The notes under the pieces are model-generated. The model had not been told where the DNA came from and made no database searches. It saw nothing but the letters and a program-made list of their open reading frames with translations. A program made the position numbers and the translations under genes. 32,000 bases of DNA from contig NZ_LN831039.1 of NCBI RefSeq assembly GCF_001457595.1, positions 3,810,001 through 3,842,000 of the forward strand, read 5' to 3'. Within the stretch, counting starts at the first letter, position 1. Each line of letters opens with the position of its first letter. This DNA comes from Mycolicibacterium smegmatis. GTDB lineage: Bacteria; Actinomycetota; Actinomycetes; Mycobacteriales; Mycobacteriaceae. Of the stretch, positions 2,815 through 32,000 are shown one piece after another.

Positions 2815-2827
2815 TCGGACTCCAGGT

Positions 2828-4552: not shown

Positions 4553-4611
4553 CCACACCTCTGAGTGGTTCAAGATTCGACAAAAACAATCAGAAGGTAA
4601 CAGCTTGATCG

Positions 4612-4658
4612 CCAGGGTATGTCACCCTGGGTTCGATTTTGTTTGTTATTGTTCGATT
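4612..4658. promoter_or_regulatory. candidate operator cluster in the divergent transporter / deoR-galTK intergenic region
   Basis: Perfect inverted repeat CCAGGGT(4612-4618)-5 nt-ACCCTGG(4624-4630), followed immediately by the direct repeat GTTCGATT at 4631-4638 and 4651-4658 (20-bp spacing). Sits in an AT-richer stretch. Confidence 0.35.
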
Positions 4659-4711
4659 CCCCACGTCAGCAATACCCAAACCCGCCGCGTCCGAGGAGGT
4701 GTTCCGCGATC

Positions 4712-7688: not shown

Positions 7689-7763
7689 ACATCTGCCGCC
7701 GCGCGTAACGCCACGGCGGAAAATCGCGCTCGGCACCGCCGTCACGTCACGAACGGCGAGCGC

Positions 7764-8987
7764 TCAGCCCACCAAGACGTCGAGGCGTTCCCATCCACGC
7801 ACCGTCGACGTCGGCGCCAACCGTGCGGTCGAGTAGTCGATGTCCCACTCCGGAAAGCGGTTGAGCAGTTCGTCGAGGGCGACCCGCCCCTCCAGACGCG
7901 CGAGATTCGCGCCAAGGCAGTAATGCAGGCCCTTGCCGAAGGTCAGGTGGCTGATGTTGTCGCGGTGGATGTCGAACACGTCGGGGTCGGTGTACCTGCG
8001 CGGATCCCGGTTGGCCGCACCGAACAACAGCAACATCGCACTGCCCGCGGGCACGGTCTGCCCGTAGGCCTCGAAATCGCGCGCGACCCAACGGGCCACG
8101 TGCGGCCCGGTCGGCTCGAACCGCAGGGTCTCGTCGACGGCGCGGGTCAGCAATGAGCGGTCCTGCTCGATCTGCCGTCGCTGATCGGGATGCTCGGCGA
8201 GCACCTTGGCCAGCCAACCGATGAGCCGGCCGGTGGTCTCGTTGCCCGCCCCGGCCACCACCTGCGTGTAGTGCAGCACCTCTTTGCGCGTGAGCTTGCG
8301 GGTGACGCCGTGCTCGTCGGTGAACTCAACACCCAGCAGCGCGGTCATCAGATCGTCGGACGGGTTCTTCGACCGCCATTCGACGTAGTCGGCGTAGATC
8401 CGGCCGTCGGCGATCTTGTCGGCCTGCGCCACCTTCATCGGGGCACCGGGCTTGGTGCGCAGGTTGGCGTCGTTGGCGTCGCGCACCCCGATCTGCTCGG
8501 ATTCCGGGATGCCCAGCAGCATCCCGATGACGCGCATCGGCATCGTCGACGCCAGCTCGGCGATGATGTCGAATCGGTCGGATCCCACCAGCGGGTCCAG
8601 GCACCGCACGCAGTACCGCCGAATCTGGTCTTCGATCTCGGCCATCCGCCGCGGCGTGAACACCCGCGACATCAGCCCGCGCAGCATCGTGTGCATGGGC
8701 GGGTCGGTGAACATCATGACCCCGGGCGGCATGTCGAAGTCCGACTTCACCAGCTCGAGGATGTCGCTGCGACTGTTGGAGAACGTCTCCCAGTTCGCCA
8801 GGGCGCTTTCGACGTCGGCGTGGCGTGACAGCGCCCAGAAGCCGTAGCGTTCGTTGTGGTAGAGCGGGGCCTCGTCGCGCAACCGGGCGTACACCGGGTA
8901 GGGGTCGGCGACGATACCCACGTCGTAGGGGTCGTAGTAGGGCCCCGCCACGTCCGTGACCACGACACCGCTGTCGTCGACCGTCAT
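7764..8987 (-). CDS. cytochrome P450 monooxygenase
   Basis: Heme-binding loop FGKGLHYCLGANLAR (Cys codon at 7917-7919), I-helix-like VVAGAGNETT and ETLR (ExxR) motif. ATG 8987 is preceded by GAGGTG. Confidence 0.9.
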   Translation of the reverse strand: MTVDDSGVVVTDVAGPYYDPYDVGIVADPYPVYARLRDEAPLYHNERYGFWALSRHADVESALANWETFSNSRSDILELVKSDFDMPPGVMMFTDPPMHTMLRGLMSRVFTPRRMAEIEDQIRRYCVRCLDPLVGSDRFDIIAELASTMPMRVIGMLLGIPESEQIGVRDANDANLRTKPGAPMKVAQADKIADGRIYADYVEWRSKNPSDDLMTALLGVEFTDEHGVTRKLTRKEVLHYTQVVAGAGNETTGRLIGWLAKVLAEHPDQRRQIEQDRSLLTRAVDETLRFEPTGPHVARWVARDFEAYGQTVPAGSAMLLLFGAANRDPRRYTDPDVFDIHRDNISHLTFGKGLHYCLGANLARLEGRVALDELLNRFPEWDIDYSTARLAPTSTVRGWERLDVLVG

Positions 8988-9012
8988 CGCTCACCTCTGT
9001 CACGCGCCGAAT

Positions 9013-9052
9013 TTGGGCGATCGCCCAATATCTAGACTGAGGCCATGTCTAG
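9013..9052. promoter_or_regulatory. two adjacent palindromic candidate operators between the divergent P450 and acyl-CoA synthetase genes
   Basis: Perfect 16-bp palindrome TTGGGCGATCGCCCAA (9013-9028), then CTAGAC(9032-9037)-9 nt-GTCTAG(9047-9052). Both lie in a 95-bp intergenic region. Confidence 0.35.
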
Positions 9053-9082
9053 CAGTCGCCGAGTTGCACGGTCAAGGATCCG

Positions 9083-10582
9083 ATGAGCCTCCTGCACCAG
9101 CTGATCTCGTCCGTCGCGGCGGCCGCACCGCACCGTCCGGCGATCATCGCCGACGACGGTTCGACGATCGGCTATGCCGAGTTCGACCACCAGATCCGCG
9201 CTGTCGCACGCTGGATCGCGAGCCGCACCGAGCCCGGCGACCGGGTGGCGGTGATCGCCGACAACAGCCCGGCGTACGCCGTGCTCTACTACGCCGTGCC
9301 GCTCGGCGGACGCGTCCTCACGCTGATCAACCAGCGCCTCAGCCCCGCCGAGCAGGCCGCGCAACTGGAGACGACGCGTCCCGCGCTGGTCCTCGGCGAC
9401 ACCGTGTACCTCGACGCGCTGCCGCAGATCGACTCCGTCGCGTTCGGCTCGCCGGCCTGGCGGGACGCCGTGAGCACCACCGCAGCCGCGCCCGAGGTTG
9501 ATCACGCCGAAGCGCAACCCGGCGACCCGGCCTGGCTGCTGTTCACCAGCGGATCCACCGGTGTACCGAAAGGTGTTGTGCACAGCCATCGTTCGATTCT
9601 CGCGGCGGTACACGGGACGGTCGACGGCCGGTCGGTGACGCCGGCCGGTGTGTACCTGCTGCCCTTCCCCATGTGCCACATCGCGGGCTACAACATGCTG
9701 GTGCAGCACGCCGTCGGCGCCACGGTGGTGCTCATGTCACGGTTCCGGCCCGAGTCGTTCGCCGCTCAGGTACGCGCCCACGGTGTGCGGTCGTGTTCGT
9801 TGGCGCCGACGATGCTGCACGCCCTGCTCGCCCATGTGGAGAGCACCGGTACGACACTGCCGACCCTGGAGGCCGTCGCCTACGGATCCGCCGCGATGCC
9901 GCTGGACCTGCTGCGCCGCGCGATCGAGGCCCTCGGGGTGGAGTTCCACCAGGGGTACGGCATGACCGAAACCGGCGGCAATGTCACATTTCTCGGCCCG
10001 GACGACCACCGCGCCGGCGCGGCGGGCCACCCCGAGGTGCTCGTGAGCGCCGGGCACCCGCACAGCGGGGTCGAGATCGGCATCGTCGACGCCGACGGGG
10101 CGCCGCTGCCGCCGGGCGGGATCGGCGAGATCGTGGTGCGCGGAGCGCAGGTGGCGCGCGGGTATTGGCCCGACCGCCCCAGCACGGTCGACGGTTGGTT
10201 GCACACCGGCGACATCGGACGACTCGACCACACGGGCCGGTTGTTCGTGGTGGACCGCCTCAAGGACATCATCGTGACCGGTGGTGAGAACGTCTCGTCC
10301 AGGGAGGTCGAGGACGTGCTGTCCGGGCATCCCGACGTCGACATGGTCGCTGTGGTGGGTGTGCCCGACGACTACTGGGGCGAGGCCGTATGTGCCGTGG
10401 TCGTCCCGGTGCCGGGACGCAACCCGCGCCCGGACGACCTGATCGACCATGTGCGCTCGGCCATCGCCGCATTCAAGCGACCCAGAGAGGTGCTGTTCGT
10501 CGACGAGTTGCCACTCACCGGCAACGGCAAGATCGCCAAGGACCGCGTGCGGGACATCGCGCGCACCGCCCTCACCGCCTGA
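9083..10582 (+). CDS. AMP-dependent acyl-CoA synthetase/ligase (FadD-like)
   Basis: AMP-binding motifs LLFTSGSTGVPKGV, GYGMTETGG, HTGDIGRLD and the C-terminal NGKIAKD. Confidence 0.85.
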   Translation: MSLLHQLISSVAAAAPHRPAIIADDGSTIGYAEFDHQIRAVARWIASRTEPGDRVAVIADNSPAYAVLYYAVPLGGRVLTLINQRLSPAEQAAQLETTRPALVLGDTVYLDALPQIDSVAFGSPAWRDAVSTTAAAPEVDHAEAQPGDPAWLLFTSGSTGVPKGVVHSHRSILAAVHGTVDGRSVTPAGVYLLPFPMCHIAGYNMLVQHAVGATVVLMSRFRPESFAAQVRAHGVRSCSLAPTMLHALLAHVESTGTTLPTLEAVAYGSAAMPLDLLRRAIEALGVEFHQGYGMTETGGNVTFLGPDDHRAGAAGHPEVLVSAGHPHSGVEIGIVDADGAPLPPGGIGEIVVRGAQVARGYWPDRPSTVDGWLHTGDIGRLDHTGRLFVVDRLKDIIVTGGENVSSREVEDVLSGHPDVDMVAVVGVPDDYWGEAVCAVVVPVPGRNPRPDDLIDHVRSAIAAFKRPREVLFVDELPLTGNGKIAKDRVRDIARTALTA

Positions 10583-10594
10583 CCGTCCGCGAGC

Positions 10595-10640
10595 GTGAAA
10601 CCTCAGCGAGAAAACTCGCAAAGAATCGCAGAGGTTTCAC
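10595..10640 (+). terminator. nested stem-loop just after the acyl-CoA synthetase stop (possible U-tract-less terminator or regulatory RNA)
   Basis: Outer perfect 10-bp stem GTGAAACCTC(10595-10604)/GAGGTTTCAC(10631-10640). Inner hairpin GCGAG-AAAA-CTCGC (10606-10619). Direct repeat AATCGCAG at 10624-10631 and 10641-10648. Confidence 0.4.
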
Positions 10641-10729
10641 AATCGCAGGGCGCCGATTCGCCGTTCGGGCAACCGCGCAACTGAAGGGTGCTAAATTCGC
10701 CGCACCACTTTCGAAGAGGGAGGCAGAAA

Positions 10730-11290
10730 ATGACTGCCACCGACCCCGACTGGATCACACCCGCCGCCATGGCGATACCGCCGGACGGATACTTCGAACT
10801 CGAACGGGGCCGTTACGGACCCGTCTTCCCGAGAACGCCCGCATGCCACGGATTCTCCATCATCGCGAAGGTCAAAGAGGGTCGCGAAGAGGCCGTACGC
10901 GCATACGGCAAACAGATCCAAGACGCAGTCGCGGACACACCCGAAGTCCTCGCACCACTGCGACTGCATTATCTGCGCTGGCTGCTGTTCGACGTCGGGT
11001 CGGGATTGCATTTCCAATATCAAGGAATCTTCGATACGGACTTCGACAAGTACACCGAAGACGCCGTACAACTGTTCAGCGCCACCGGGATTACTACCGT
11101 TTTCACAAATCTCGAAGGATTTCCGGCGGATTGGAAAGAGAATCCGGATGCGTTCATCCGGTTCGTCCGGGAGCATCAGGTGCCGAGTTTCCTCGAGTAC
11201 GGCGAGTATCCCTACGTGACGGCTGACGAGATCAAGAAGGCGTTGCGCCTCAAGTCGGCGTTCTCGACCATGCTCGACCAGATGCAGTGA
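10730..11290 (+). CDS. hypothetical protein (186 aa), first gene of the DyP-like cassette
   Basis: Within ORF 10688..11290, ATG 10730 is preceded by AGGGAGG (10716-10722). No motif I can assign. The stop overlaps the next start (GTGA). Visibly lower G+C than its neighbours. Confidence 0.7.
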   Translation: MTATDPDWITPAAMAIPPDGYFELERGRYGPVFPRTPACHGFSIIAKVKEGREEAVRAYGKQIQDAVADTPEVLAPLRLHYLRWLLFDVGSGLHFQYQGIFDTDFDKYTEDAVQLFSATGITTVFTNLEGFPADWKENPDAFIRFVREHQVPSFLEYGEYPYVTADEIKKALRLKSAFSTMLDQMQ

Positions 11291-12624
11291 CAGTGCTCGA
11301 CCTCGACGACATCCAGCACATCCTGCTGACCCGCACACCGGCCATCACCGGGCGATACGAATTCCTGACATTTGACACCCCCGCCGGTGGGCGTGCCTGG
11401 CTCACCGCGCTTCTGGACAAGGTGCAGTCCGCGGCCGATGTCCGGGCATCGATGGACACCTCTGACCGTTGGGTCACTTTGGCGTTCACATGGACCGGGC
11501 TGCGGGCGCTCGGCGTGCCCGAGGAGTCCCTGTCGACATTTCCGGACGAGTTCCGCGAGGGTATGGCCGCGCGCGCGAGCATCCTCGGCGACACCGGCGC
11601 CAACGCACCCGAGCACTGGCCGGGCGGACTGGCGGGAACCGACCTGCATGCGATCGCGATCCTGTTCTCCCGCAACGAAGAACAATGCCGGAAGTCCATC
11701 AGCGAACACGACCGCCTGCTGAGCCGCACCAACGGTGTGCGCAGCCTGTCGCACCTCGATCTCAACGCATCACCGCCGTTCGACCACGCGCACGATCACT
11801 TCGGCTTCCGCGATCGCCTGTCGCAACCCGTGATGAAGTATTCGGGTGAGGAACCGACCCCGGGTTCGGGCGACGCCCTCGAACCCGGCGAGTTCATCCT
11901 GGGCTATCCCGACGAATCGGGTCCGGTCGCACATCTCCCCCAGCCCGTGGTGTTGTCCCGCAACGGCAGTTTCATGGCCTACCGGCGGCTGCAGGAACAC
12001 GTCGGAGTGTTTCGCGAGTACCTGCGCGAACATTCCGACGATCCCGCCGGCGAGGCACTGCTGGCCGCGAAGTTCATGGGCCGGTGGCGCAGCGGTGCGC
12101 CGCTGGTACTCGCGCCCGAGTGTGACGATCCAGCACTCGGAGCAGATCCCATGCGCAACAACAATTTCAACTACAAGGACATGGACCCGTTCGGTTACGC
12201 ATGCCCGCTGGGATCGCATGCGCGCCGACTCAACCCGCGTGACACCGCGCACTACATGAACCGGCGACGCATGATCCGGCGCGGCGCCACCTACGGTCCC
12301 GCCCTGCCGGAGGGGGCGCCCGACGACGGCGTGGAGCGCGGTATCGCCGCGTTCATCATCTGCGCGGACCTCGTCCGCCAATTCGAGTTCGCCCAGAATG
12401 TGTGGATCAACGACAAGACGTTCCACGAGTTGGGCAACGAGCACGACCCGATCTGCGGGACCCAGGACGGGACCATGGATTTCACCGTGCCCAAGCGGCC
12501 GATCCGTAAGGTCCACAAGGGACTTCCTGCGTTCACCTCGGTCAGAGGCGGCGCGTACTTCTTCCTTCCCGGTATCTCGGCGTTGCGATACCTCGCTGCG
12601 CTGAAAGACGAGGTGACGGCATGA
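11287..12624 (+). CDS. DyP-type (dye-decolorizing) peroxidase family protein
   Basis: HFGFRDR (variant GXXDG, Asp codon 11812-11814), proximal-His motif GSHARRLNPRD (His 12217-12219), distal-Arg motif IRRGATYG (12274-12297) and an N-terminal LDDIQHILL segment. No signal or Tat peptide. Confidence 0.8.
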   Translation: MTVLDLDDIQHILLTRTPAITGRYEFLTFDTPAGGRAWLTALLDKVQSAADVRASMDTSDRWVTLAFTWTGLRALGVPEESLSTFPDEFREGMAARASILGDTGANAPEHWPGGLAGTDLHAIAILFSRNEEQCRKSISEHDRLLSRTNGVRSLSHLDLNASPPFDHAHDHFGFRDRLSQPVMKYSGEEPTPGSGDALEPGEFILGYPDESGPVAHLPQPVVLSRNGSFMAYRRLQEHVGVFREYLREHSDDPAGEALLAAKFMGRWRSGAPLVLAPECDDPALGADPMRNNNFNYKDMDPFGYACPLGSHARRLNPRDTAHYMNRRRMIRRGATYGPALPEGAPDDGVERGIAAFIICADLVRQFEFAQNVWINDKTFHELGNEHDPICGTQDGTMDFTVPKRPIRKVHKGLPAFTSVRGGAYFFLPGISALRYLAALKDEVTA

Positions 12625-17434: not shown

Positions 17435-19744
17435 ATGGCAACAATCGAAGCCAACGCACACAACCTGTCGTCATCGGCAAAGGACTTCGACAGTGAGGTG
17501 GCTGCCACGCAGGCCTACTTCGACAGTCCACGGTTCGAGGGCATCACCCGGCTGTACTCGGCCCGTCAGGTCGTCGAGCAACGCGGCACGATCGCCACCG
17601 ACCACACCGTGGCCCGTGAGGCCGCGGAGGCGTTCCACCCCTACCTGCGCGAGTTGTTCGCCCAGAAGAAGAGCATCACGACGTTCGGCCCGTACTCCCC
17701 GGGACAGGCCGTGGTGATGAAACGCATGGGTATCGGCGGCATCTACCTCGGTGGGTGGGCGACCTCGGCGAAGGGCTCGATCAGTGAGGATCCGGGTCCG
17801 GACCTCGCGAGCTACCCGCTGAGTCAGGTTCCCGACGAGGCCGCAGGCCTGGTGCGGGCGCTGCTCACCGCCGACCGCAACCAGCACTACCTGCGCCTGC
17901 AGATGACGCCCGAACAGCGCGAGGCCCAGCCGCCCGTCGACTACCGGCCCTTCATCATCGCCGACGCCGACACCGGCCACGGCGGAGATCCGCACGTACG
18001 CAACCTGATCCGTCGCTTCGTTGAATCCGGAGTGCCCGGCTACCACATCGAGGACCAGCGGCCCGGCACCAAGAAGTGCGGCCATCAGGGCGGCAAGGTG
18101 CTCGTGCCGTCGGACGAGCAGATCAAACGGCTCAACACCGCACGCTTCCAGCTCGACATCATGCGGGTGCCGGGAATCATCGTGGCGCGCACCGACGCCG
18201 AGGCCGCGAACCTGATCGACAGCCGCGCCGACGAGCGGGATCAGCCGTTCCTGCTCGGCGTCACCAACCTCAAGATCCCGTCGTACAAGTCGTGTTTCCT
18301 GGCGATGATGCGGCGGTTCTACGACCAGGGCCTGACCGAGATCAACGGTCACCTGCTCTACGACCTGCCCGAAGGCCAGTACGAAGCTGCCGAGGCGTGG
18401 CTGACCGGCGCGGGCATCATGGACGAGATCGCCGCGGCGGTCGAGTCGTGGACGTCCGGCGCCGCATCCTCGGTCGACGCCCTGTACGACGCGGTCGAGT
18501 CGAAGTTCGTCGACGCCTGGCAGGACGACGCGGGCCTCAACACCTACGGCGAGGCGGTCGCCGAGGTCATCGAGTTCCGTGAACGTGAGGGTGAATCCGT
18601 CGCGATGAGCGCCGCCGAGTGGCGCGAGTTCGCCACCAGAGCGCCGTTGTACACGGCCACCAACAAGGCGAGAGAACTCGGCGTCGACGTCGCGTGGGAC
18701 TGCGAACCGGCCAAGACCCCGGAAGGCTACTACCAGGTGCGCGGCGGAATTCCGTACGCCATCGCCAAATCGCTGGCCGCCGCGCCGTTCGCGGACATCC
18801 TGTGGATGGAGACCAAGACCGCCGATCTGGCCGACGCCAAGCAGTTCGCCGACGCGATCCACGCCGTGTACCCCGATCAGATGCTGGCCTACAACCTGTC
18901 GCCGTCGTTCAACTGGGACACCACGGGCATGACCGACGACGAGATGCGGGCGTTCCCCGAGGAACTCGGCAAGATGGGGTTCGTCTTCAACTTCATCACC
19001 TACGGCGGTCACCAGGTGGACGGCGTGGCGTGCGAGGAGTTCGCGACCTCACTGCGCCAGGAGGGCATGCTGGCGCTGGCCCGGCTGCAGCGCAAGATGC
19101 GCCTGGTCGAATCCCCCTATCGCACACCGCAAACGCTCGTCGGCGGGCCACGCAGCGACGCGGCCCTGGCGGCGTCCTCCGGACGGACAGCGACCACCAA
19201 GGCCATGGGCAAGGGCTCCACGCAGCACCAGCACCTGGTGCAAACCGAGGTGCCCAAGAAGCTGCTCGAGGAATGGCTCGCGATGTGGAGCGAGCACTAC
19301 GGGTTGCCCGAAAAACTCCACGTGCAACTGCGCCCGCGGCGCGCGGGTTCCGACGTGCTGGACCTGCAGATCCTGGGCGAGGGCGGCGACGGCACAGACC
19401 CGCTGGCCAACGTGGTCGTCGACCCCATCAAGGATCGCCACGGCCGCAGCATCCTCACGGTGCGTGACCAGAACACGTTCGCTGAGCAGATGCGCAAGAA
19501 ACGCCTGATGGACCTGATCCACCTGTGGCTGATCCACCGTTTCAAGGCCGAGATCGTGTATTACGTGACGCCCACCGAGGACAACATCTACCAGACCGAG
19601 AAGATGAAAGCGCACGGCATCTTCAGCGATGTCTACCAGGAGGTCGGCGAGATCATCGTGGCCGACGTCAACAAGCCCCGTATCGAGGAACTGCTGGCCT
19701 CCGACCGTGAGGCACTGGGTCGGCTGATCCGCAAGGAGGACTGA
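17435..19744 (+). CDS. aceA: isocitrate lyase, long form (Icl2/AceA type, 769 aa)
   Basis: ICL signature KKCGHQGGK (18071-18097), [11 protein letters not shown], and the extra C-terminal domain typical of mycobacterial long ICL. ATG is preceded by AGGAG. Confidence 0.9.
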
Positions 19745-20424: not shown

Positions 20425-21513
20425 ATGAATGCCGTGCCCGATAATCCCAAGCCGGTCCTGAACCGGCGCAGAGTCCTGCTGGGAGCGGCGGCGATCGGCG
20501 GCTTCTTGGCCGTGGACCTCGGAGCGTTGCTGTTCGCCACCAACACCCTTGGGACGCAACGACTCACCCCGAGAGCAATTCTCGAGGCGCTCGCCCCACC
20601 CGGCGGCCGACCCCGCGGCTACCGCGCCAACCATGCCAAAGGCGTCGCGGTATCCGGCTATTTCGACAGCAATGGCAACGGCCAGGAGATCTCCCGCGCC
20701 GCCGGGTTGGCGCCCGGGCGAACACCGGTCATCGGCCGGTTCTCGTTCGGTGGCAGCGACCCGCATGTGGCCGACGATCCGTCGCTGGCCCGTGGCCTGG
20801 GCCTGGCGTTCGGCTTTCCCTCCGGTCAGCAGTGGCGGACGGCCATGCTGAGTCTGCCGGTTTTCCCCGACAAGACACCAGAGGGTTTCTACGAACGCAC
20901 ACTGGCCGGAAAACCCTTGCCCTCCACGGGTAAACCGGATCCCGATGCGATGCCGAAGTACCTTGCCGCACATCCGGAGACCAAAGCCGCGTTGGACATC
21001 ATCAAAGCCACGAAACCGAGTCCCGGCTTCGCCGACAGCACCTTCCGCAGCCTGATGGCGTTCTACTTCGTCGACGACAAGGGAGTGCGCACCCCGGTGC
21101 GCTGGTCGTTGGAGCCCATGCAGGCAGCGCTGCCCGCAGGCACCGGGGACGACCGCCTGTTCGACGCACTGGTCCGGCAGATACGCAGCGGTCCCGTGCG
21201 GTGGAGGCTGCTGCTCACCGTCGGTGAGCAGCAGGACCCGGTCACCGACGCCACCGTGCCCTGGCCCGCCGATCGGCGCGTCATCGACGCAGGGACGCTG
21301 ACCCTGGACACTGTCGAGACCGACGGTCCGGGCAACGGACGCGACGTCAACTTCGATCCGCTGGTGCTGCCCGACGGTATCGAGCCGTCCGAGGACCCGA
21401 TGCTCAGTGCGCGGTCGGCGGCCTACGCCGCGTCCTACCGGCTGCGCACGAGTGAGACTCCGTCGATCCCGCCCGAGGTACAGGTCGACAAGGTCGAGGA
21501 GGTGGCGCAGTGA
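20425..21513 (+). CDS. catalase-related heme protein with Tat-type signal
   Basis: N-terminal NRRRVLLGAAAIGGFLAV (twin-arginine signal) and a catalase-core-like motif YRANHAKGVAVSGYF. About 360 aa, much shorter than a canonical catalase. GTGA overlap with the downstream cytochrome b. Confidence 0.7.
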   Translation: MNAVPDNPKPVLNRRRVLLGAAAIGGFLAVDLGALLFATNTLGTQRLTPRAILEALAPPGGRPRGYRANHAKGVAVSGYFDSNGNGQEISRAAGLAPGRTPVIGRFSFGGSDPHVADDPSLARGLGLAFGFPSGQQWRTAMLSLPVFPDKTPEGFYERTLAGKPLPSTGKPDPDAMPKYLAAHPETKAALDIIKATKPSPGFADSTFRSLMAFYFVDDKGVRTPVRWSLEPMQAALPAGTGDDRLFDALVRQIRSGPVRWRLLLTVGEQQDPVTDATVPWPADRRVIDAGTLTLDTVETDGPGNGRDVNFDPLVLPDGIEPSEDPMLSARSAAYAASYRLRTSETPSIPPEVQVDKVEEVAQ

Positions 21514-22088
21514 CGGCCACCGGCACCGACGAGACCATCGCACCGACCACCACACAGGCACGGCACGCGGTATCGACCAGGGTGTTCCACTGGCTCACCG
21601 CGATTCTCGTTTTCGCCGCGCTGTTCATCGGCTTCGTGATGGTGAATTCGGTGGCCAGTTATGCCCAGCTGCTGGTCATCCACAAGGCACTGGGTGTCAC
21701 GATCCTGGTGGTCGTGGTGATCCGCATCGGCAACCGGCTCTTTCACCGCGGCCCGCCGCTTCCGTCGACCGTCGGCGCACTCGAGCGCAAAGCCGTTGTG
21801 CTGTCCGAGGTTTCGATGTACGCCCTGCTGGTCGCCCAGCCGCTGATCGGGTGGGCGATGCTGTCGGCCGCGGGAAATCACGTCGCGGTGTTCAACCTCG
21901 TGCGGCTTCCCCGTATCGCACCGTTCAGCGCCGATCTCTACGGCGTGCTGCGCCAGGCGCACACGGTGGCGGCGTTCCTGTTGGTCGCGGCGATCGCAGC
22001 ACACGTCTGCGCGGTGCTGCTGCACAGCGTCACGCTGCGTGACGGGATGCTGCGCCGAATGACCTTCGGGTCATCCACGCGCGGCTGA
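21510..22088 (+). CDS. cytochrome b561-family membrane protein
   Basis: Four hydrophobic helices with conserved His residues (VFHWLTAILVFAALFIGF; VIHKALG; AHTVAAFLLVAAIAAH). The size and layout match bacterial cytochrome b561. Confidence 0.8.
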   Translation: MTATGTDETIAPTTTQARHAVSTRVFHWLTAILVFAALFIGFVMVNSVASYAQLLVIHKALGVTILVVVVIRIGNRLFHRGPPLPSTVGALERKAVVLSEVSMYALLVAQPLIGWAMLSAAGNHVAVFNLVRLPRIAPFSADLYGVLRQAHTVAAFLLVAAIAAHVCAVLLHSVTLRDGMLRRMTFGSSTRG

Positions 22089-23956: not shown

Positions 23957-24403
23957 ATGCACCATCGTCGATACCGGCCGACGAGCAGGCCCACGCCCCT
24001 GGCGTGGTTCTACCGACTCGACCGTCGGATGCAGGCGGACCTGCTCGCCAATCCGCACGGGTATCTTCCCGATGGCGTGGCGGCCGAGATCGCCTCCCAC
24101 ACGGTGCGTAGCTATCGGGACGAGAAACCGCAGGAGTCTCGTCTGTGGCAGCTGCGCTCGGCGGAAGCCAATCTGCTCGAAGACGAGCGTCTGCGCCTCG
24201 ACAGGTGGTGGCGTGAGCTGCCGGATGAGGCCAGGGCCGCCCTCGTCACCTGCAGGGACGGCTCGGTGCCGCGCGCATGGCGCGCCACCGTGCTCGACCT
24301 GCATCCGGACGGGCTGGGGCCGGGAACAGACCTGGAAGCCGAGTTCAGGATGTCGGGCATCGCGGCCGCCTACATAGAGATGGTCGCGACATGCTGCCTT
24401 TGA
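23957..24403 (+). CDS. hypothetical protein (148 aa)
   Basis: ATG 23957 is preceded by GGAGG (23941-23945, 11-nt spacer). Moderate third-position G/C. Charged, Trp/Arg-rich sequence with no assignable motif. Confidence 0.55.
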   Translation: MHHRRYRPTSRPTPLAWFYRLDRRMQADLLANPHGYLPDGVAAEIASHTVRSYRDEKPQESRLWQLRSAEANLLEDERLRLDRWWRELPDEARAALVTCRDGSVPRAWRATVLDLHPDGLGPGTDLEAEFRMSGIAAAYIEMVATCCL

Positions 24404-24439
24404 GGCAGCCCTGACACGGCCTGGAGACAACCCTGCGAA

Positions 24440-24455
24440 GTTCGCCATGGCGAAC
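24440..24455. promoter_or_regulatory. perfect 16-bp palindrome GTTCGCCATGGCGAAC between the hypothetical gene and the LAS-like gene
   Basis: Read directly. CGAAGTTC also recurs at 24437-24444 and 24476-24483. Confidence 0.35.
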
Positions 24456-24495
24456 ACGCGCGAAGAGCACCCTCTCGAAGTTCCGCCGCAGTAGA

Positions 24496-25155
24496 TTGCT
24501 GGCCGTGGGTGGTATCCGGTTGGCAAATGGTCGTGGACGATGGCTGGCGTTCGGCGTTTCGATCAGCGTCGCCGCCGCGATGTTCTATGCGCAGGGCACC
24601 GATACGTCGTGCTGCGGGCCGACGGCGGCGGCCTCCCAACCGGATCAACCGGCGGCGGCGTCCGCGCCTGCGCCCGCCCACGCCGAGTTGCTGGCTGCCG
24701 CCGCACCCGCGGCCGCTCGCGATTTCCAGTTCGCGCTGCCGCCGGGCGCCGCACCCGAGTCCGGTCTGCAGGTCAACACGATCTGGACGGCACGGGCCAT
24801 CAGCGTGATGTTCCCCGAGATCAAGACCATCGGCGGATACCGTCAGGATCCGCTGAAGTGGCATCCCAACGGTTTGGCGATCGATGTGATGATCCCGGAT
24901 CACCAGTCCGAGAAGGGCATCGAGTTGGGCAACCAGATCGCCGGTTTCGCGTTGGCCAACGCGAAACGCTGGGGCGTGCTGCACGTGATCTGGCGGCAGG
25001 GTCTCTATCCGGGCATCGGCGCGCCGAGCTGGACGGCCGATTACGGCAACGAGACCGCCAATCATTTCGATCACGTCCACATCGCCACAAATGGCGGCGG
25101 TTACCCTACCGGCAAAGAAATGTATTTTCTGAATTCAAAGACTTTGGCGAACTGA
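24496..25155 (+). CDS. membrane-anchored/secreted protein with a LAS (peptidase M15-like) zinc-peptidase motif set
   Basis: N-terminal hydrophobic segment WLAFGVSISVAAAMFYA, then an Ala/Pro linker. The C-terminal domain has WHPNGLAID (HxxGxAxD, 24862-24885) and HFDHVH (25063-25080). Start uncertain (TTG 24496, GTG 24505 or TTG 24520). Confidence 0.65.
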   Translation: MLAVGGIRLANGRGRWLAFGVSISVAAAMFYAQGTDTSCCGPTAAASQPDQPAAASAPAPAHAELLAAAAPAAARDFQFALPPGAAPESGLQVNTIWTARAISVMFPEIKTIGGYRQDPLKWHPNGLAIDVMIPDHQSEKGIELGNQIAGFALANAKRWGVLHVIWRQGLYPGIGAPSWTADYGNETANHFDHVHIATNGGGYPTGKEMYFLNSKTLAN

Positions 25156-25541
25156 TCGCACCGTTTTCGATTCGTCGCGACCATCAAGATCTCTTGGAGT
25201 CAATCCAGACTGGACAATTCATGCGCTTTTCAAGATCGGACAGACGGCGCATCCAATCCGTCTCACCAGTTGGTTCACGGTTCGACAACCAGTATCACCT
25301 GCGCTGGACCGCACCCGGAAAGCGACAACAGGCAGACAAAGGTTCGTGACATTTCAATGAGCGCATGAACTCGAACTTCACGGATCTCCGATGAGCGTGA
25401 AGTTTGCCCGCTACTCTGAATTCCATTGAGTCTCGCCGATGAAATAGCCAGCGGCGACTCTATTTCGGTGCGTCCAAGGGGGGACGGCTGATCGGAGGTT
25501 CGAGGTACCGGACGCGATGACCACAATCCTGGGGTGAGTTC
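25156..25541 (+). promoter_or_regulatory. low-GC, structured intergenic leader upstream of the NRPS
   Basis: My hand count of 25161-25280 gives about 52% G+C. Hairpin AACTTCACG(25374-25382)-13 nt-CGTGAAGTT(25396-25404). Imperfect hairpin GAGTCTCGCCG(25428-25438)...CGGCGACTC(25452-25460). Confidence 0.3.
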
Positions 25542-28500
25542 ATGGTTGGTGACCCGACACGGCGGTTGTTGTCCATCGATCTGCTCGATGACGACGAGCA
25601 TGACAGACTCGACGACTGGGGCAACCGGTCCGCCCTGACGAGGCCGGCCGCCCAGCAGAAAACGATCCCGCAACTCTTCTCCGCCCAGGTCACCCGGACG
25701 CCGACCGCCCACGCACTGGTGTGTGGCGAACGCGTCTTCACCTACCGCGAATTGGATGAGGCCACCGATCGTCTCGCGATGCGATTGACGCGTAGTGGGT
25801 CCGGACCGGGCCAATGTGTGGCGCTCCTGCTGCCCCGCTCAGCCGAAGCCATCATCGCGATTCTCGCCGTGCTCAAGTCAGGGGCGGCGTATCTGCCCAT
25901 GGATACGGCTCATCCGGATGCACGGCTGCGCTTCATGCTCCATGACGCCAAACCCGTCGCGGCCGTGACGACGTCCGCACTTCATACGCGATTGACCGGG
26001 ACGGGCATACCTCTCCTCGATATCGACGCATGCGACACCGGCGCAAGCGCGCCCATCCGCCCGCCCGTACCCGACGATCTCGCATACCTGACGTACACGT
26101 CGGGCACCACCGGTGTACCCAAAGCTGTCGCGGTGACCCACCGGAACGTCACACAGTTGCTGGAATGTCCACACCCAGAGCTTCCCGCAAGTCCGGGACA
26201 GGTTTGGTCGCAATGGCATTCGCTGGTCTTCGATGTGTCGGTATGGGAGATCTGCGGTGCGCTGCTCCACGGCAACCGGCTCGTGGTGGTGCCTGAATCC
26301 ATCGCGAGTTCGCCACACGAGCTCAATGCACTGCTGGTCCGGGAACGTGTGACCGTGCTGTGCCAGACTCCCTCGTCTGCGGGCATGCTCTCAGCCGAGG
26401 GTCTGGACCGGACCGCGCTGGTGGTGGCCGGTGAAGCCTGCCCGGCTGATCTGGTGCAAAGATGGGCGCCCGGGCGCGTGATGCTCAATGCCTATGGCCC
26501 GACGGAGGCCACCGTGTACGCCGCGATGAGTTCTCCGCTTTCATCGGATGCCGATCCGGTCCCCATCGGACGGCCGGTCCCCCACGCCGCCGCCTTCGTC
26601 CTGGACAAGTTCCTGCGACCGGTTCTCGACGGCGTAATCGGCGAGTTGTACATCGCGGGAGCCGGGGTCGCGGTCGGCTACGCACGCCGCTCCGCTTTGA
26701 CCGCATCACGATTTGTCGCCTGTCCATTCGGGACCCCCGGGCAGCGGATGTACCGTACCGGCGACCTGGTGCGCTGGGACGACGACGGACACCTGGTGTA
26801 TCTGGGTCGCTGCGACGAGCAGGTGAAGATACACGGCTACCGCATCGAGCTGGGCGAGGTGCAGGCCGCATTGGCCGGCCTCGACGGCGTGGACCAAGCG
26901 GTGGTGACGGTCCGCGAGGACCGCCCTGGCGACCAGCGGCTGGTCGGCTACATCATCGGTGCCGCCGATCCCAGCGCGTCACGCCGCGCACTGGCAGAGC
27001 GGCTCCCGGCGTACATGGTTCCCGCCGCGGTGGTGGTGCTCGACTCGCTGCCACTGACGGTGAACGGCAAGCTGGACAAGCGCGCGCTGCCTGCCCCGGA
27101 CTACCGCGGCGATGCCGGATCGTTTCGCGCCCCCACCTCAGACGTCGAGCGGATCCTCACAGACATTTATTCCGAAGTACTCGGTGTGGACCGGGTGGGC
27201 GTCGACGATTCGTTCTTCGCACTCGGCGGCGACAGCATTCTGTCGATGCGGGTCGTCGCGCAGGCCCGTATGCAGGGTCTGCGGCTCCGGCCTCGCGATG
27301 TGTTCGTCGAGCAGACGGTTGCAAGGTTGGCTGCAACGGCCACCCTCGTGAGTGGTCAGCGCGAGCCCGGTGAGGACGTTACCGCGCCCGTCACGGCGAC
27401 GCCGATGATGCGCTGGCTGCAAACCGTGGACGGCCAGGTGGATCAGTTCCACCAAGCAATGGTGTTGCAGGCACCCGCCGACGCTGCAGGCTGTGAGTTC
27501 GCCGATGTGGTGGACGTGCTGCAGGACCTGCTGGATCACCACGCCGCGTTGCGGCTCTGCGCGAGTGGGGATGGTCCATCGGCACCGGTACTTGAGGTGG
27601 GCGCCGTGCGCGCAGCCGATTGTGTGCAGTCGGTCGACACCCTGTGCGCCGAAACGTTGGCGAAGGCGCGCTCTCGCCTGAATCCGGCTGAGGGCCGCCT
27701 GCTCTCGGCGCTGTGGGTACCACATACACACCAGTTGGTCTTGATGATCCACCACATCGGCGTCGATGGGGTGTCCTGGCGAATCCTTCTGGAGGACCTC
27801 AACATCGCGTGGGCTCAACGTCGCGCTCACCAGCGGGTGGAGCTGCCCGCCGAGGGGACGTCGTTGGCTCACTGGTCTGCTCTGCTGCAAAAGCACGCAT
27901 ATTCGCCCGAGGTCGTTGCCCAGGCGGGTGCCTGGCAGAAGGTGCTGTCCATCGCGACCCCTCTGCCGGAGACACAACCGGCCGTGGACACCTACGCGAC
28001 CGCGGGTCATCTGTCTGTGTCGTTGGACTCCGAGACCACCCGGCAGTTGCTCGGCGACGTACCCGCAGCATTCCATGCCGGGGTCGGCGACATCATGCTC
28101 ATCGCATACGCCCTGGCGTGGAACGAATTTCGAGGTGGTGGCAGCGCCTCGATCACCATCGACGTCGAAGGTCACGGCCGCGACGAAGAACTGGGTGACG
28201 TCTTCGGTGAAGACATCGACCTGTCCCGCACCGTGGGCTGGTTCACCACGAAGTATCCCGTGGCCATCACCGTCGCCCCTCTCCGTTGGGACCTCGTACG
28301 AGACGGCGCCCCTGCCCTCGGCGCCATGATCAAGTCAGCCAAAGAACAATTGCACAGCCTTCCGGGCACATCGACGTACGGATTGCTGCGTCACCTGAAT
28401 ACCGACGTCGACCTGTCGGGCCCCGAACCCACCATCGGTTTCAACTATCTGGGCCGTGTCGGCGCGGATCACCTGGGCGACCGACTCTGGCGAATCGACC

Positions 28501-31500
28501 CCGACGGACTGGCCCTCGCCGAGGTCGCTTCCGCGGTGCCGATGCCGCTGATGCACACACTCGAGCTCAACGCAGGCACGCTGCAAGTCGATTCGCCGGC
28601 CGGCACGCCGGAGCCGGCACTCCAGGCAGCATGGACGTGGGCACCCTCGGCCGTGGACGAAGCGCAGGTGAAGCGGTTGAGCCAGCTGTGGTTCGAAGCA
28701 CTCACCGGCATCTGCGCACACGTGAGATCCGGTGGCGGCGGATGGACGCCTTCCGACATCGCACCGGCCGTCCTGACCCAGTCGCAGATCGATCAAATCG
28801 CCGAACAGTACCGCGTCGCCGACATCCTCCCCCTGACCCCGCTGCAGCAGGGGCTGTTCTTCCACTCGTTGATCGGCCCGGGTGAGGCTTCGACCGATGT
28901 GTACGCGGTGCAGTTGGACATCACGGTGACCGGCCTCCTCGACGCTGATCGCCTGCACGACGCCCTGCTGACCGTGCTGCGACGCCATCCCAACCTCGTG
29001 GCACGTTTCTGTGGCGACTTCGACCCGCCGGTTCAGATCATCCCGGACGACCCGGTCATGGCCTGGCGTTACATGGATCTGCGCGAAGACGACCGGCCGC
29101 CCGAGGTAGAGATCGAAAAACTCTGCACCGCCGAGCGCGTCGCTGTTTGTCACCTCACTGATCGGCCGGCCTTCCGCGCAGCGTTGATCCGCACCGCGGG
29201 CAACCAACACCGATTCGTGATGACGTTCCACCACATCGTTGTCGATGGGTGGTCTCTTCCGATACTCCTCAAGGAGATCTTCGGCGCGTACTTCGAACAC
29301 CGGCTGCCTGCCCCGAGGCCCTATCGTGACTTCGTTGGCTGGCTTTCCGCTCAGGACCACGACGCTGCGCGTGCAGCATGGCACGAGGTGATGGGCGGAT
29401 TCGCCAGCCCGACGGTGCTCACTCACCCGGGGCCCCCAGGGCCACGCCGCGCGCACACCTACCATGTGCCCGCCGAAACGACGCGTGCAGTCGGCGATTT
29501 GGCCCGCTCCTGCCGCACCACGGTCAACACGGTCCTGCAGGCCGCGTGGGCGCAACTCCTGATGGCGCTCACCGGGCAGCATGACGTCGCGTTCGGAACC
29601 GCTGTCTCCGGTCGGCCTGCCGAACTGGCGGGATCAGATTCGCTTGTCGGGCTGTTGATCAACACCATTCCTGTGCGGGCCAATGTCCCACCGACGGCAT
29701 CTGTCTCAGACCTGCTGGACCAACTGCAGCGCACGCACAACGCCACTGTCGACCATGAATATATGTCACTCAACGAGATTCATCGGATCACCGGTCATGA
29801 CCAGTTGTTCGACACCCTGTTCGTGTACGAAAGCTACCCCTTCGACGCAGGTGCTTTCGCCGGCACACACGAGTTGGCGATCACCGACTTCACCACCCGG
29901 GAACACAACCATTATCCATTGTCGGTCATCGCGATACCCGGTCACGAGTTGGGTCTGCGTGCGGAGTTCGACAGTGTCCGATTCACCGACGACGATATCG
30001 AGGAGCTGATCGAACGATTCCTGCGTGTGCTCGCGGCCATGATCGACGATCCGGAACGGAGAGTATCGACGATCGACGTGCTCGGCACCTCCGAGCGTGA
30101 GCGGCTCGACAGCTGGTGCCGGCGAGAGCGGCTACGTGGAAAGGGTTCTGGTTCCTCATCGATTCCGGAACGATTCTCCGCACAGGTCGTTCGGACCCCG
30201 GATTCGGTTGCGGTCACGTGCGGCGGAGAGTCGCTGACCTATGCAGAGCTCGACGAGACCGCCGATCGATTGGCAAACCTGTTGACCTTGCATGGCGCAG
30301 GGCCGGGCACCTACGTCGCCATCATGTTGCCCCGATGCGCACAAGCGATTGTGGCGATCCTCGCCGTGCTCAAGACCGGTGCGGCATATCTGCCCATCGA
30401 CCCGGTCCTGCCGGACGCACGTGTGCAGTTCATGCTCGATGACACCGCGCCGATCGCCGCGGTCACCAACGATGAGCTGCGCTCCCGGTTCGACGGGTTC
30501 GCCGGGGTGGTCGTGGAGGCCGACGATCCGGCCATGTCCCTTCACCCCACCACCGCACTGCTGGCCCCCGCCGCCGATGACATCGCCTACGTCATCTACA
30601 CGTCGGGCACCACCGGACGACCCAAAGGCGTGGCTGTCACCCATCACAACGTCACTCGGCTCTTCGACGCGCCCTATCCCGGTCTCACGTTCGGGTCTGG
30701 CCAGGTCTGGACCCAATGCCACTCGACGGGATTCGACTTCTCGGTGTGGGAGATATGGAGCGCGCTGCTCCACGGAGGGCGGCTCGTGGTGGTGCCCGAG
30801 TCCGTCACCAGCTCACCGAGCGACCTCCATGAACTTCTCGTCACCGAACACGTCACCATGTTCAGCCAGACACCGGCCGCTGCTGCGGCTCTGTCGCACA
30901 CCGGCTTGGAGGATCTGACGCTGGTGGTCGGCGGAGAAGCGTGCCCGAGTGAGGTGGTTCAGCGCTGGGCGCCCAAGCGCACGATGATCAACGGGTACGG
31001 ACCAACCGAGACCACCGTATTCGCCTCCACCAGTGAGCCTTTGAATCCGTCCTCCCCGGGTGATGTTCCAATCGGCGCACCGGTACCCGGCGCCGCCGTG
31101 TTCGTCCTGGACTCGTGGCTGCGTCCGGTCCCACCGGGCGTCGCGGGTGAGGTCTACGTCGCCGGCGGCGGTGTGACCGTCGGCTACGTGCACCGGCCTG
31201 GTATGACCGCGTCGCGCTTCGTGGCTTGTCCGTTCGCGGCGGACGGCAGCCGGATGTATCGCACCGGTGACCTCGCTCGCTGGGGAACCGACGGCCAGCT
31301 GCGTTATCTCGGGCGTGCCGACGATCAAGTGAAGATCCGCGGCTTCCGGATCGAACTCGGCGAGATCCAATGTGCGCTCGCCGACCTCGACGGGGTCGAC
31401 CAAGCGGCCGTCGTCGTGCGCGAGGACCAGCCCGGTGACAAGCGACTGGTCGGCTACATCACCGGCACCATGGACCCGGCCGTGGCACGTGAAATGCTTG

Positions 31501-32000
31501 CCGATCACCTGCCGCCCTACATGGTTCCGGCGGCCGTCCTGCGGTTGGACACGCTACCTGTGACCGTCAACGGCAAACTCGATCAGCGCGCGCTCCCCGT
31601 GCCCGGGTACGGCAACACCCGGATTCATCGCCCGCCTGTGACCCGGACCGAGAAGGTGGTCGCGGGCGTCTTCGGCCAGGTGCTCGGTGTAGAGCAGGTC
31701 GGCATCGACGACTCGTTCTTCGATCTGGGCGGCGACTCCATCTCAGCCATGCGGTGCGTCGCCGCAATCAACACCGCACTGGATGTCGGAGTCGGAGTGC
31801 AGGATTTACTGCAGGCACCGCAGGTTCGCCTGTTGAGCAGGCAGATTGAGGGCGTCGGCGAAACCGACACGTTGGCCGCAGGCGGCGCAACCGTGGAGTC
31901 GGTGCACGGATCAGCCGACGTCACCGAGATCCGTGCCGCCGATCTGACACTGGACAAGTTCATCGACGACGCGGCATTGTCCGCGGCGCGGAACTTACCC
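25542..32000 (+). CDS. non-ribosomal peptide synthetase, 5' portion (A-T-E-C-A-T and the start of a reductase domain); continues beyond the window
   Basis: Not in the ORF track because it has no stop in the window. I translated the frame with codons starting at positions divisible by 3. In-frame stop at 25518-25520, then ATG 25542. The frame was checked at 26091, 27234, 27750, 28167, 29229, 30597, 31737 and 31941, and is open to nt 32000. Confidence 0.9.
25656..27095 (+). other. NRPS adenylation domain 1
   Basis: [14 protein letters not shown] (A1), [11 protein letters not shown] (26091-26123), [35 protein letters not shown] and [10 protein letters not shown] (about 27062-27092). Confidence 0.85.
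27141..27345 (+). other. NRPS thiolation (PCP) domain 1
   Basis: [17 protein letters not shown], with the phosphopantetheine-attachment Ser codon at 27234-27236. Confidence 0.85.
27385..28800 (+). other. NRPS epimerization (E) domain
   Basis: [13 protein letters not shown] (HHxxxDG at 27750-27770), the E-domain hallmark EGHGRD (28167-28184), and a terminal GGWTPSDI linker. Confidence 0.75.
28815..30060 (+). other. NRPS condensation domain (position implies DCL type)
   Basis: N-terminal [14 protein letters not shown] and active site [10 protein letters not shown] (29229-29249). It follows an E domain. Confidence 0.8.
30160..31600 (+). other. NRPS adenylation domain 2
   Basis: [24 protein letters not shown] (30597-30626), [35 protein letters not shown] and [10 protein letters not shown] (31569-31598). 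Confidence 0.85.
31640..31850 (+). other. NRPS thiolation (PCP) domain 2
   Basis: [16 protein letters not shown], with the Ser codon at 31737-31739. Confidence 0.85.
31900..32000 (+). other. probable start of a terminal thioester reductase (R) domain (truncated by the window)
   Basis: [24 protein letters not shown] resembles the segment preceding the NAD(P)H Rossmann motif in NRPS and carboxylic-acid-reductase R domains. The GxxGxxG motif itself would lie beyond nt 32000. Confidence 0.5.

Follow-up and report, generated by a model that had tools for sequence, protein, structure and literature searches.

The DNA studied here is a window of 32,000 nucleotides from Mycolicibacterium smegmatis (assembly GCF_001457595.1, contig NZ_LN831039.1, positions 3,810,001 to 3,842,000 of the forward strand), and its right end holds the 5' part of a gene for a nonribosomal peptide synthetase (hereafter the NRPS). 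Judged by its sequence, the NRPS is a full-length, intact and diverged paralogue of Mps2, the second peptide synthetase subunit of glycopeptidolipid (GPL) synthesis, encoded outside the GPL locus. Its domains stand in the order A-T-E-C-A-T-R (A, adenylation; T, thiolation; E, epimerisation; C, condensation; R, thioester reductase). Homology over all seven domains, together with the intact catalytic residues, places it by sequence comparison in a family of Mps2-like bimodular reductive NRPS paralogues. It is thus an uncharacterised NRPS of the Mps2 type and not a new kind of system. Our preferred reading, held tentatively and at somewhat less than an even chance, is that the protein is a self-contained two-module assembly line from which a D-Ala-containing dipeptide would be released by reduction.

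Open Reading Frame and Identity of the NRPS

The frame runs on the plus strand from the ATG at 25542 to the window end at base 32000, which makes 2153 codons with zero stops. The closest in-frame stop on the 5' side is the TGA at 25518-25520, and no alternative start lies between this TGA and the ATG. All 2153 of 2153 translated residues are identical to a 2574-aa NRPS of M. smegmatis mc2 155 (ABK69800.1 / AFP40090.1). The initial annotation, made from the letters of the window, had proposed a real frame of 2153 codons from this ATG, and the stop-free frame and the 100% match to the mc2 155 protein bear this out. It had also ascribed the absence of the frame from the list of open reading frames (ORFs) to the lack of a stop in the window. 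This is correct, because the listing leaves out frames that run past the sequence end. The gene is nevertheless annotated and not overlooked, as had been implied: both GenBank entries already carry the NRPS annotation.

The 421 residues past the window were taken from the identical mc2 155 protein and from a 99%-identical strain (L001). The full protein of 2574 aa is intact. Pfam found two AMP-binding, two Condensation-type, two PP-binding and two AMP-binding_C stretches on the frame, with E-values of 2.6e-153 for AMP-binding, 2.1e-98 for Condensation-type and 4.8e-26 for PP-binding.

Relationship to the GPL Synthetase Mps2

We compared the NRPS with the GPL synthetase of M. goodii (L082), whose locus has the gene order mbtH, mps1, mps2, gap. 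There, mps1 encodes 3426 aa with the order C-A-T-E-C-A-T-E-C by self-similarity, ending in a C domain, and mps2 encodes 2556 aa with the order A-T-E-C-A-T-R and overlaps the mps1 stop by 4 bp. One BLASTP alignment spans residues 1-2563 of the NRPS and 1-2556 of this Mps2, with 64.6% identity and the same start position, and the N-terminus of M. goodii Mps2, MTAEPTTRTLLSFDLLDEDEHDQIDVWGNR, aligns with that of the NRPS. The identity is spread over all domains (A1 70%, T1 72%, E 62%, C 66%, A2 65%, T2 63%, R 64%). The gene is therefore a 65% paralogue of GPL mps2 and not part of the GPL cluster, and the system is not identical to a characterised one.

Beyond the 90% cluster of M. smegmatis, the best full-length matches were Mps1 proteins, about 3400 aa long and named as GPL biosynthesis proteins. 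Residue 1 of the NRPS aligns to about residue 416 of Mps1, and an N-terminal starter C domain, such as Mps1 and Mycobacterium tuberculosis (Mtb) Nrp have, is absent, the NRPS beginning at the equivalent of this residue. The initial annotation had explained the C-less start by a starter A domain derived from an elongation module that lost its own C domain. We replace this explanation: the start is inherited from Mps2, because Mps2 starts at the same residue and its cognate C domain is the C-terminal domain of Mps1. The likeness of the N-terminus to a C-A linker, on which the earlier idea was built, does hold, with 50% identity to the internal linker of Mps2 and 69% to that of Mps1.

The NRPS shares 59-66% identity with Mps2 proteins, whereas canonical Mps2 proteins mostly share 70-81% among themselves. 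In a neighbour-joining tree without bootstrap, the NRPS and an M. peregrinum protein (L003, 66% identity) form a pair with long branches that falls outside the canonical Mps2 group.

This kinship admits another explanation, in which the NRPS is an alternative terminal GPL subunit. It would dock on the C-terminal C domain of Mps1, take over the fatty-acyl-D-Phe-D-alloThr chain, and add D-Ala and a different last residue. We consider this unlikely, and likewise the GPL variants with a non-alaninol amino alcohol that would follow from it. Mps1 is present in M. smegmatis (PMC1885439; PMC11978893, Data S1i). The NRPS also shares the architecture and the start residue of Mps2, its first A domain has a code identical to that of a D-Ala module, and its N-terminal segment is conserved among 15 Mps2-like proteins, the 30 residues that would continue the Mps1 C domain being as conserved as in true Mps2. 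However, the NRPS is only 59-66% identical to Mps2, against the values mostly of 70-81% in the canonical group, and its gene lies outside the mbtH-mps1-mps2-gap operon. The N-terminal segment occurs in every internal C-A linker, and a segment of this kind is also found in stand-alone initiation A domains, so that such conservation does not point to docking in particular. Moreover, a 2025 survey of GPL-like loci gives "2nd GPL locus: Not identified" for M. smegmatis mc2 155 (PMC11978893, Data S1i).

Domain Organisation

A motif search of the full 2574-aa protein gave the order A-T-E-C-A-T-R with every checked catalytic motif intact, which agrees with the order A1-T1-E-C-A2-T2-R that had been read from the window. 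All features below are on the plus strand.

25542..32000: 5' part of the NRPS gene, 6459 nt, residues 1-2153 of 2574; frame open at the window end
25542..25661: N-terminal 40 residues, C-A linker-like; 65% to the Mps2 N-terminus, 69% to the Mps1 internal linker
25662..27116: A domain 1, code DVWCVAAVYK, predicted Ala; 70% identical to Mps2 A3; YTSGTTG at residue 185, FDVS at 230, NAYGPTE at 316
27117..27356: T domain 1 (PF00550, motif); GGDSI at residue 562, Ser = residue 565
27357..28796: E domain, residues 606-1085; 62% identical to Mps2 E; HHIGVDG at residue 737, EGHGR at 876, TVGWF at 897, FNYLG at 967
28797..30086: C domain of the post-E (D-donor) kind, by identity to GPL C domains; tblastn match 28797-30050; HHIVVDG at residue 1230
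30087..31631: A domain 2, code DFWSVGGVFK; backbone 65% identical to Mps2 A4; YTSGTTG at residue 1686, FDFS at 1731, NGYGPTE at 1817
31632..31871: T domain 2 (Pfam, motif); GGDSI at residue 2063
31872..32000: linker and start of the R domain, first 43 residues, the other 421 lying past the window; TGATGFLG at residue 2165, YGNSK at 2337

The internal C domain is 66% identical to the internal C of Mps2 and 58-59% identical to C2 and C3 of Mps1, but only 25% identical to the starter C of Mps1. The earlier reading of an E domain followed by a C domain for a D-configured donor is thus upheld, with identities of 58-66% to the GPL post-E C domains.

The reductive release domain, which could only be called probable from its first residues, is present. 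Besides its motifs, it has PF07993 and PF01370 matches and matches the R domain of Mtb Nrp (4dqv) with 604 bits and the R domain of a carboxylic acid reductase (CAR; 5mso) with 615 bits. In the full protein, the gene ends after R, and neither a thioesterase (TE) domain nor a further module follows in the sequence past 32000.

Substrate Specificity of the Two A Domains

The specificity codes were extracted by alignment to a presumed GrsA reference sequence from residue 234 onward; as a control, this sequence itself gave DAWTIAAICK. The codes DVWCVAAVYK for A1 and DFWSVGGVFK for A2, both read earlier by eye, were reproduced. The four modules of the M. goodii GPL synthetase gave the following codes.

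Phe module: DAWTVVGICK
Thr module: DYWSVGMVHK
Ala module (becomes D-Ala): DVWCIAAIYK
Ala module (becomes alaninol): DVWYVAAIYK

These modules correspond to the GPL peptide D-Phe-D-alloThr-D-Ala-L-alaninol (PMC3537567).

The A1 code is identical at 10 of 10 positions to that of the first A domain of a canonical Mps2 (L041), and differs from module 3 of M. goodii Mps2, which supplies the GPL D-Ala, by two I/V exchanges only. A1 is therefore predicted from its code to activate Ala and not a Phe-like residue. The initial annotation had called A1 Phe-like; its code is that of the GPL D-Ala module, and the GPL Phe code is DAWTVVGICK.

The A2 code has no match among about 60 codes from 33 mycobacterial proteins. 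It had been stated earlier that neither code matches a known one exactly; within this set of codes, this stands for A2 and not for A1. A2 and the GPL Thr code agree at 7 of 10 positions. Thr outright was rejected as the substrate, as A2 has G and F where the Thr code has M322 and H331. From the alaninol-module code A2 differs at 5 of 10 positions, so the Mps2 trait of two Ala-type codes is not found here. Compared with the Ala codes, A301 and A322 are changed to Gly, which would enlarge the pocket, and we therefore guess at a residue of Thr or Val size.

Release of the Product

The order of a first A domain and a terminal R domain also allows the NRPS to be read as a dipeptide-aldehyde synthetase like AusA. 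Its free-amine product would then cyclise and be oxidised, giving a pyrazinone or cyclic imine, and residues 1 and 2 would be Phe-like and Thr-like. The NCBIfam AusA model is the second-best match of the NRPS (864.6 bits), and the R domain is as close to the aldehyde-forming R domains of CARs as to that of Mtb Nrp. However, the match lies far below the 2500-bit cut-off of this equivalog model (NF047350). AusA-type enzymes are not known to have an E domain, whereas the E domain of the NRPS has all signature motifs, and on chemical grounds aromatisation to a pyrazinone would be expected to destroy the centre that E sets. Furthermore, A1 has the GPL Ala code instead of a Phe code, and Mps2, the closest characterised relative, releases an alcohol. 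This explanation appears quite improbable to us.

For the preferred reading of a self-contained dipeptide synthetase, we favour release as an alcohol, because the GPL R domain carries out a four-electron reduction to the alcohol (PMC2835699), and because an aldehyde with a free amine would cyclise and aromatise, which would erase the centre set by the conserved E domain. Reductive release as aldehyde or alcohol had been proposed from the window, with a pyrazinone or imine as the possible end product. The reductase part of this proposal stands; the pyrazinone route is possible and not favoured, given the E-set stereocentre and the alcohol formed by the R domain of the paralogue.

Genomic Setting

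A single-gene insertion is the best description of the NRPS gene, which occupies a variable slot flanked by a peptidoglycan (PG) hydrolase gene and an mmpS-mmpL pair. The left edge of the slot is the following region, which is identical in L001.

25156..25541: intergenic region, 386 nt, AT-rich; presumed promoter region

The 25.5 kb upstream encode two acyl-CoA-type ligases, a Na/solute symporter, DeoR-galT-galK, a P450, an MFS/Spns transporter, a long isocitrate lyase (Icl2), a catalase-like/cytochrome b561 pair, an acyltransferase-3 and a 216-aa PG hydrolase. Neither Mps1, MbtH, Gap, a polyketide synthase (PKS) nor a C-domain relic was found in these 25.5 kb (tblastn, E-value up to 10). An Mps1 or C-domain remnant 5' of the ATG was tried as a candidate and rejected, since matches at E<=10 were only unrelated FadD-type ligases at 864-2462 and 9080-10540. 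On the downstream side, there is no Mps1, C-domain relic or MbtH within 10 kb of the NRPS, and L001 contains no homologue of Mps1, MbtH or Gap. The immediate neighbourhood has no FadD, acyl carrier protein (ACP) or isonitrile-type genes, and the nearest AMP-binding ligases lie 15-25 kb upstream, past galTK and icl2.

In L001 the NRPS is followed by mmpS (148 aa), mmpL (964 aa) and then small ORFs. The MmpL protein belongs to the MmpL4/MmpL5 siderophore-exporter family (9syj, 1243 bits). Its orthologues are 81-86% identical in many rapid growers, and 84-86% identical in the three loci that we inspected (L085, L086, L087), none of which has an NRPS near mmpS-mmpL. One of them, L085, keeps the acyltransferase-3, the PG hydrolase and mmpS-mmpL, and the position of the NRPS is filled there by four unrelated genes (an MpaB-like oxygenase, TetR, a 61-aa ORF and a second hydrolase). 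About 85 nt upstream of mmpS (L001 18018-18098, past the window) are conserved and still lie between NRPS and mmpS. This region is common to M. smegmatis, Mycobacterium sp. TNTM28, M. neoaurum and Mycobacteroides franklinii, and it combines a GTCAAC..GTTGA palindrome (palindrome-like element GTCAACnnnGTTGATTAG) with the start region GAAAGGGTCACGnATG. It could be an operator for some regulator. Given the orthologues without an NRPS nearby and the conserved upstream region of their own, MmpS/MmpL were downgraded as cluster partners of the NRPS.

The composition of the slot differs from its surroundings. The GC content of 25001-26000 is 0.59, the lowest in the window, against 0.667 for the whole window, and that of the NRPS-mmpS spacer (L001 17726-18017) is 0.536. 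At third codon positions, the NRPS has a GC content (GC3) of 0.77-0.78; most neighbouring genes reach 0.81-0.89, and the mps genes of M. goodii 0.85-0.87. A scan of 24400-25700 gave no sigma-70-like promoter or terminator. We found no tRNA genes as island markers, and a search for direct or inverted repeats on either side of the NRPS showed nothing beyond the internal similarity of A1 and A2.

Some neighbouring genes may be described here.

17435..19744: isocitrate lyase, 769-aa long form, upstream of the catalase/cytochrome b561 pair
20425..22088, plus strand: 362-aa catalase-family protein and 192-aa cytochrome b561, with a 4-bp overlap at 21510-21513
24505..25155, plus strand: 216-aa PG hydrolase just upstream of the NRPS, with a PF26571 match in L001

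The overlap of the catalase and cytochrome b561 genes suggests a coupled haem-protein pair. The 216-aa ORF fits MSMEG3721, for which Piuri and Hatfull (2006) described a length of 216 aa, homology to Rv1728c and a peptidoglycan-hydrolase motif that also occurs in the tape measure protein of phage TM4 (PMC1796659). Genes of this type are present in two copies in L085. A gene of about 160 aa right after mmpL (L001 21452-21940) is on the plus strand in M. smegmatis and on the minus strand in L085, L086 and L087 (blastn, reverse complement), which suggests a small local inversion.

Conservation and Expression

The 90% cluster of M. smegmatis has 21 members, and in the full-length protein search it was the sole match above 62% identity. 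The 7.7-kb frame is intact, at 2574 aa, in 14 of its 15 listed members, and the exception has 2142 aa. As judged from the ranking of bit scores, no orthologue of at least about 75% identity surfaced outside this cluster. The NRPS and its copy in L001 differ by 57 substitutions (28 non-synonymous, 29 synonymous), which corresponds to a dN/dS of 0.34. Although the protein has diverged from Mps2 by about 35%, no catalytic motif has been lost.

A protein named "phenyloxazoline synthase homologue", MSMEI_3627 (I7FF39), was quantified by proteomics and was down more than three-fold (logFC) on L-lactate together with the mycobactin synthetases (PMC10747050). MSMEI_3620 is reported as a catalase (PMC5071874). 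It fits the catalase-like gene that lies seven genes upstream of the NRPS. No other NRPS is known in that part of the M. smegmatis genome. For these two reasons, MSMEI_3627 is very probably the NRPS. The apparent co-regulation with the mycobactin enzymes prompted a search for an IdeR box, and no site with <=6 mismatches was found near the NRPS. We found no papers that name the NRPS by any of the locus tags or accessions tried; from the gene order we guess that its tag is MSMEG_3715. The matches to MSMEG_372x in the literature were rejected as other genes (PqqCD, katG and MSMEG3721 of the old numbering).

These data bear on a third explanation, namely that the NRPS is a horizontally acquired or duplicated passenger, silent or useless, a copy slowly decaying without Mps1. 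It is consistent with the low GC3 and AT-rich flanks of the NRPS and its position as a lone gene in a variable slot, with the lack of an orthologue of at least about 75% beyond the M. smegmatis cluster, and with comparable loci that look decayed, having half a C domain, split genes and insertion sequence (IS) elements (L083 and L084, described below). However, decay would not be expected to leave the 7.7-kb frame intact in all but one of the 15 listed members, nor all catalytic motifs in place at about 35% divergence from Mps2. The dN/dS of 0.34 and the probable detection and regulation of the protein in proteomics (PMC10747050) also argue against it, and we regard it as rather improbable.

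Related Loci in Other Genomes

A genome scan with the T2-R part as the query gave at least 80 loci; M. smegmatis itself was not among the matches listed. The loci L002-L049 are Mps2-like, and in at least 15 cases the C-terminal C domain of Mps1 lies directly upstream. Three others among L002-L049, which have neither a C domain in cis nor an adjoining Mps1, are listed here.

L003, M. peregrinum DSM 43271: codes DVWCVAAIYK / DYWSMAGIYK; context LysR/GNAT
L022, M. lehmannii: codes DVWCIAAIYK / DVWTAVAMCK; beside Gap, HSP90 and two ABC transporters
L039, a metagenome-assembled genome (MAG): A2 code DVWHVAAIYK; beside an MFS transporter

No transporter was found near L003. The loci L050-L081 were rejected as NRPSs because they are CARs (A-T-R, about 1170 aa); the R domains of these roughly 30 genes are 56-61% identical to the R domain of the NRPS.

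Fused or broken forms also occur. L036 of M. triplex (2714-11548) encodes a fused C-A-T-E-C-A-T-R protein of 2944 aa, in which both A codes are DAEHVAALCK; L036 is the second Mps2-related locus of its genome, beside the canonical L043. In two mycobacterial contigs from soil metagenomes (L083, 4064-12409; L084, 3891-12343), an Mps2-like gene split in two directly adjoins what is only the C-terminal half of an Mps1-type starter C domain (Mps1 210-419), with GPL tailoring genes, two gap genes and IS elements in the vicinity. This looks like an mps1/mps2 deletion-fusion, or like assembly frameshifts. A deletion-fusion of the mps1/mps2 type has been described for pstA of M. avium subsp. paratuberculosis (PMC3537567).

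Proposed Assembly Line

On the reading that we favour, with a confidence a little below even, A1 would load L-Ala onto T1, and the E domain would turn the T1-bound L-Ala into D-Ala. The post-E C domain would then join D-Ala to an L-amino acid that A2 has loaded on T2. Finally, the R domain would release the dipeptide with NAD(P)H, by analogy with Mps2 likely as the amino alcohol D-Ala-Xaa-ol and less likely as the aldehyde. Phosphopantetheinylation, and probably an MbtH-like helper too, would be supplied from elsewhere in the genome. The neighbouring pump of the MmpS/MmpL4-5 type may export the product, though its adjacency looks accidental.

C-less initiation modules of the A-T-E type are classical, as in GrsA and TycA. 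The self-contained reading is supported by the lack of Mps1, a C-domain relic or MbtH in cis, and self-sufficiency fits the recurring free-standing Mps2-like copies in other species, some of them beside transporters.

Several points weigh against it. No product of the NRPS appears in the searchable literature, and the substrate of A2 is only a guess. Module 1 of Mps2 receives its chain through a C domain on another protein, so a partner acting in trans is possible for the NRPS too. The R domains of CARs, which stop at the aldehyde, are as similar to that of the NRPS as is the R domain of Mtb Nrp (615 against 604 bits). Cluster support is weak, since mmpS-mmpL are conserved at 81-86% in many species that have no adjoining NRPS, and carry their own upstream region of about 85 nt. 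A dN/dS of 0.34 within the species means only moderate constraint, and a GC3 of 0.77 fits a foreign or weakly expressed gene.

Biological Significance

M. smegmatis mc2 155 is the standard model mycobacterium, and its NRPS products (mycobactin, exochelin and GPL) are regarded as known. The gene described here encodes a fourth NRPS of this species, for which the searchable literature offers neither a product nor a paper, and which was not counted in the 2025 survey of GPL-like loci (PMC11978893).

Working alone, the NRPS would extend the mycobacterial metabolome by a small D-Ala-containing amino alcohol or aldehyde. Working with Mps1, it would be a natural case of subunit exchange at the C|A split, useful for NRPS engineering, and would point to hidden GPL diversity. 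Such natural subunit swapping on Mps1 is the most interesting open possibility. In that case M. smegmatis, M. peregrinum, M. lehmannii and others would keep spare subunits for the C-terminal C domain of Mps1, and an altered last residue of the GPL core would give condition-dependent variants of a surface lipopeptide. We see only a slim chance that spare Mps2-type terminal subunits are swapped on Mps1 in this way, or that a new free D-Ala-Xaa-ol metabolite is co-regulated with mycobactin synthesis. Otherwise, the NRPS is an ordinary orphan paralogue.

Comparison with Known Systems

Like AusA (A-T-C-A-T-R), the NRPS is a two-module enzyme with an A domain first and a reductase last. However, the best-matched stretch of the AusA model covers only residues 19-599 of the NRPS.

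Mtb Nrp (Rv0101, C-A-T-C-A-T-R) is likewise bimodular and mycobacterial, and its terminal R domain is closely related to that of the NRPS (4dqv, 604 bits). Nrp has a starter C domain and is not known to have an E domain, whereas the NRPS has E and no starter C.

The C-less A-T-E first module that would hand a D-aminoacyl group to a downstream C domain resembles GrsA and TycA. In those systems, a separate protein carries the next module and a TE domain releases the product, whereas the NRPS fuses both modules and an R domain in one chain.

L003, L022 and L039 share the order A-T-E-C-A-T-R, without a C domain in cis or Mps1 next door. The NRPS, L003 and L022 all have a first code of the Ala type; the second codes vary. 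In the tree, L003 lies closest to the NRPS (66%), but none of the three is a close orthologue, and they differ from the NRPS in their A2 codes and lie in unrelated genomic contexts.

The closest likeness is to Mps2, as encoded by M. smegmatis mps2 and in the M. goodii locus. Both proteins have the order A-T-E-C-A-T-R and similar lengths (2574 aa for the NRPS and 2556 aa for Mps2), start inside the C-A linker, and have a D-Ala-type first code, a post-E C domain and a terminal R domain, the latter 64% identical. Unlike Mps2, the NRPS is encoded outside the mbtH-mps1-mps2-gap operon, with no Mps1 upstream and no Gap downstream. Its A2 code is DFWSVGGVFK, whereas Mps2 has DVW[Y/G]VAAIYK or DVHSVAAVYK. 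In contrast to Mps2 orthologues, it is 64.6% identical to the M. goodii protein and sits on a long branch outside the canonical group.

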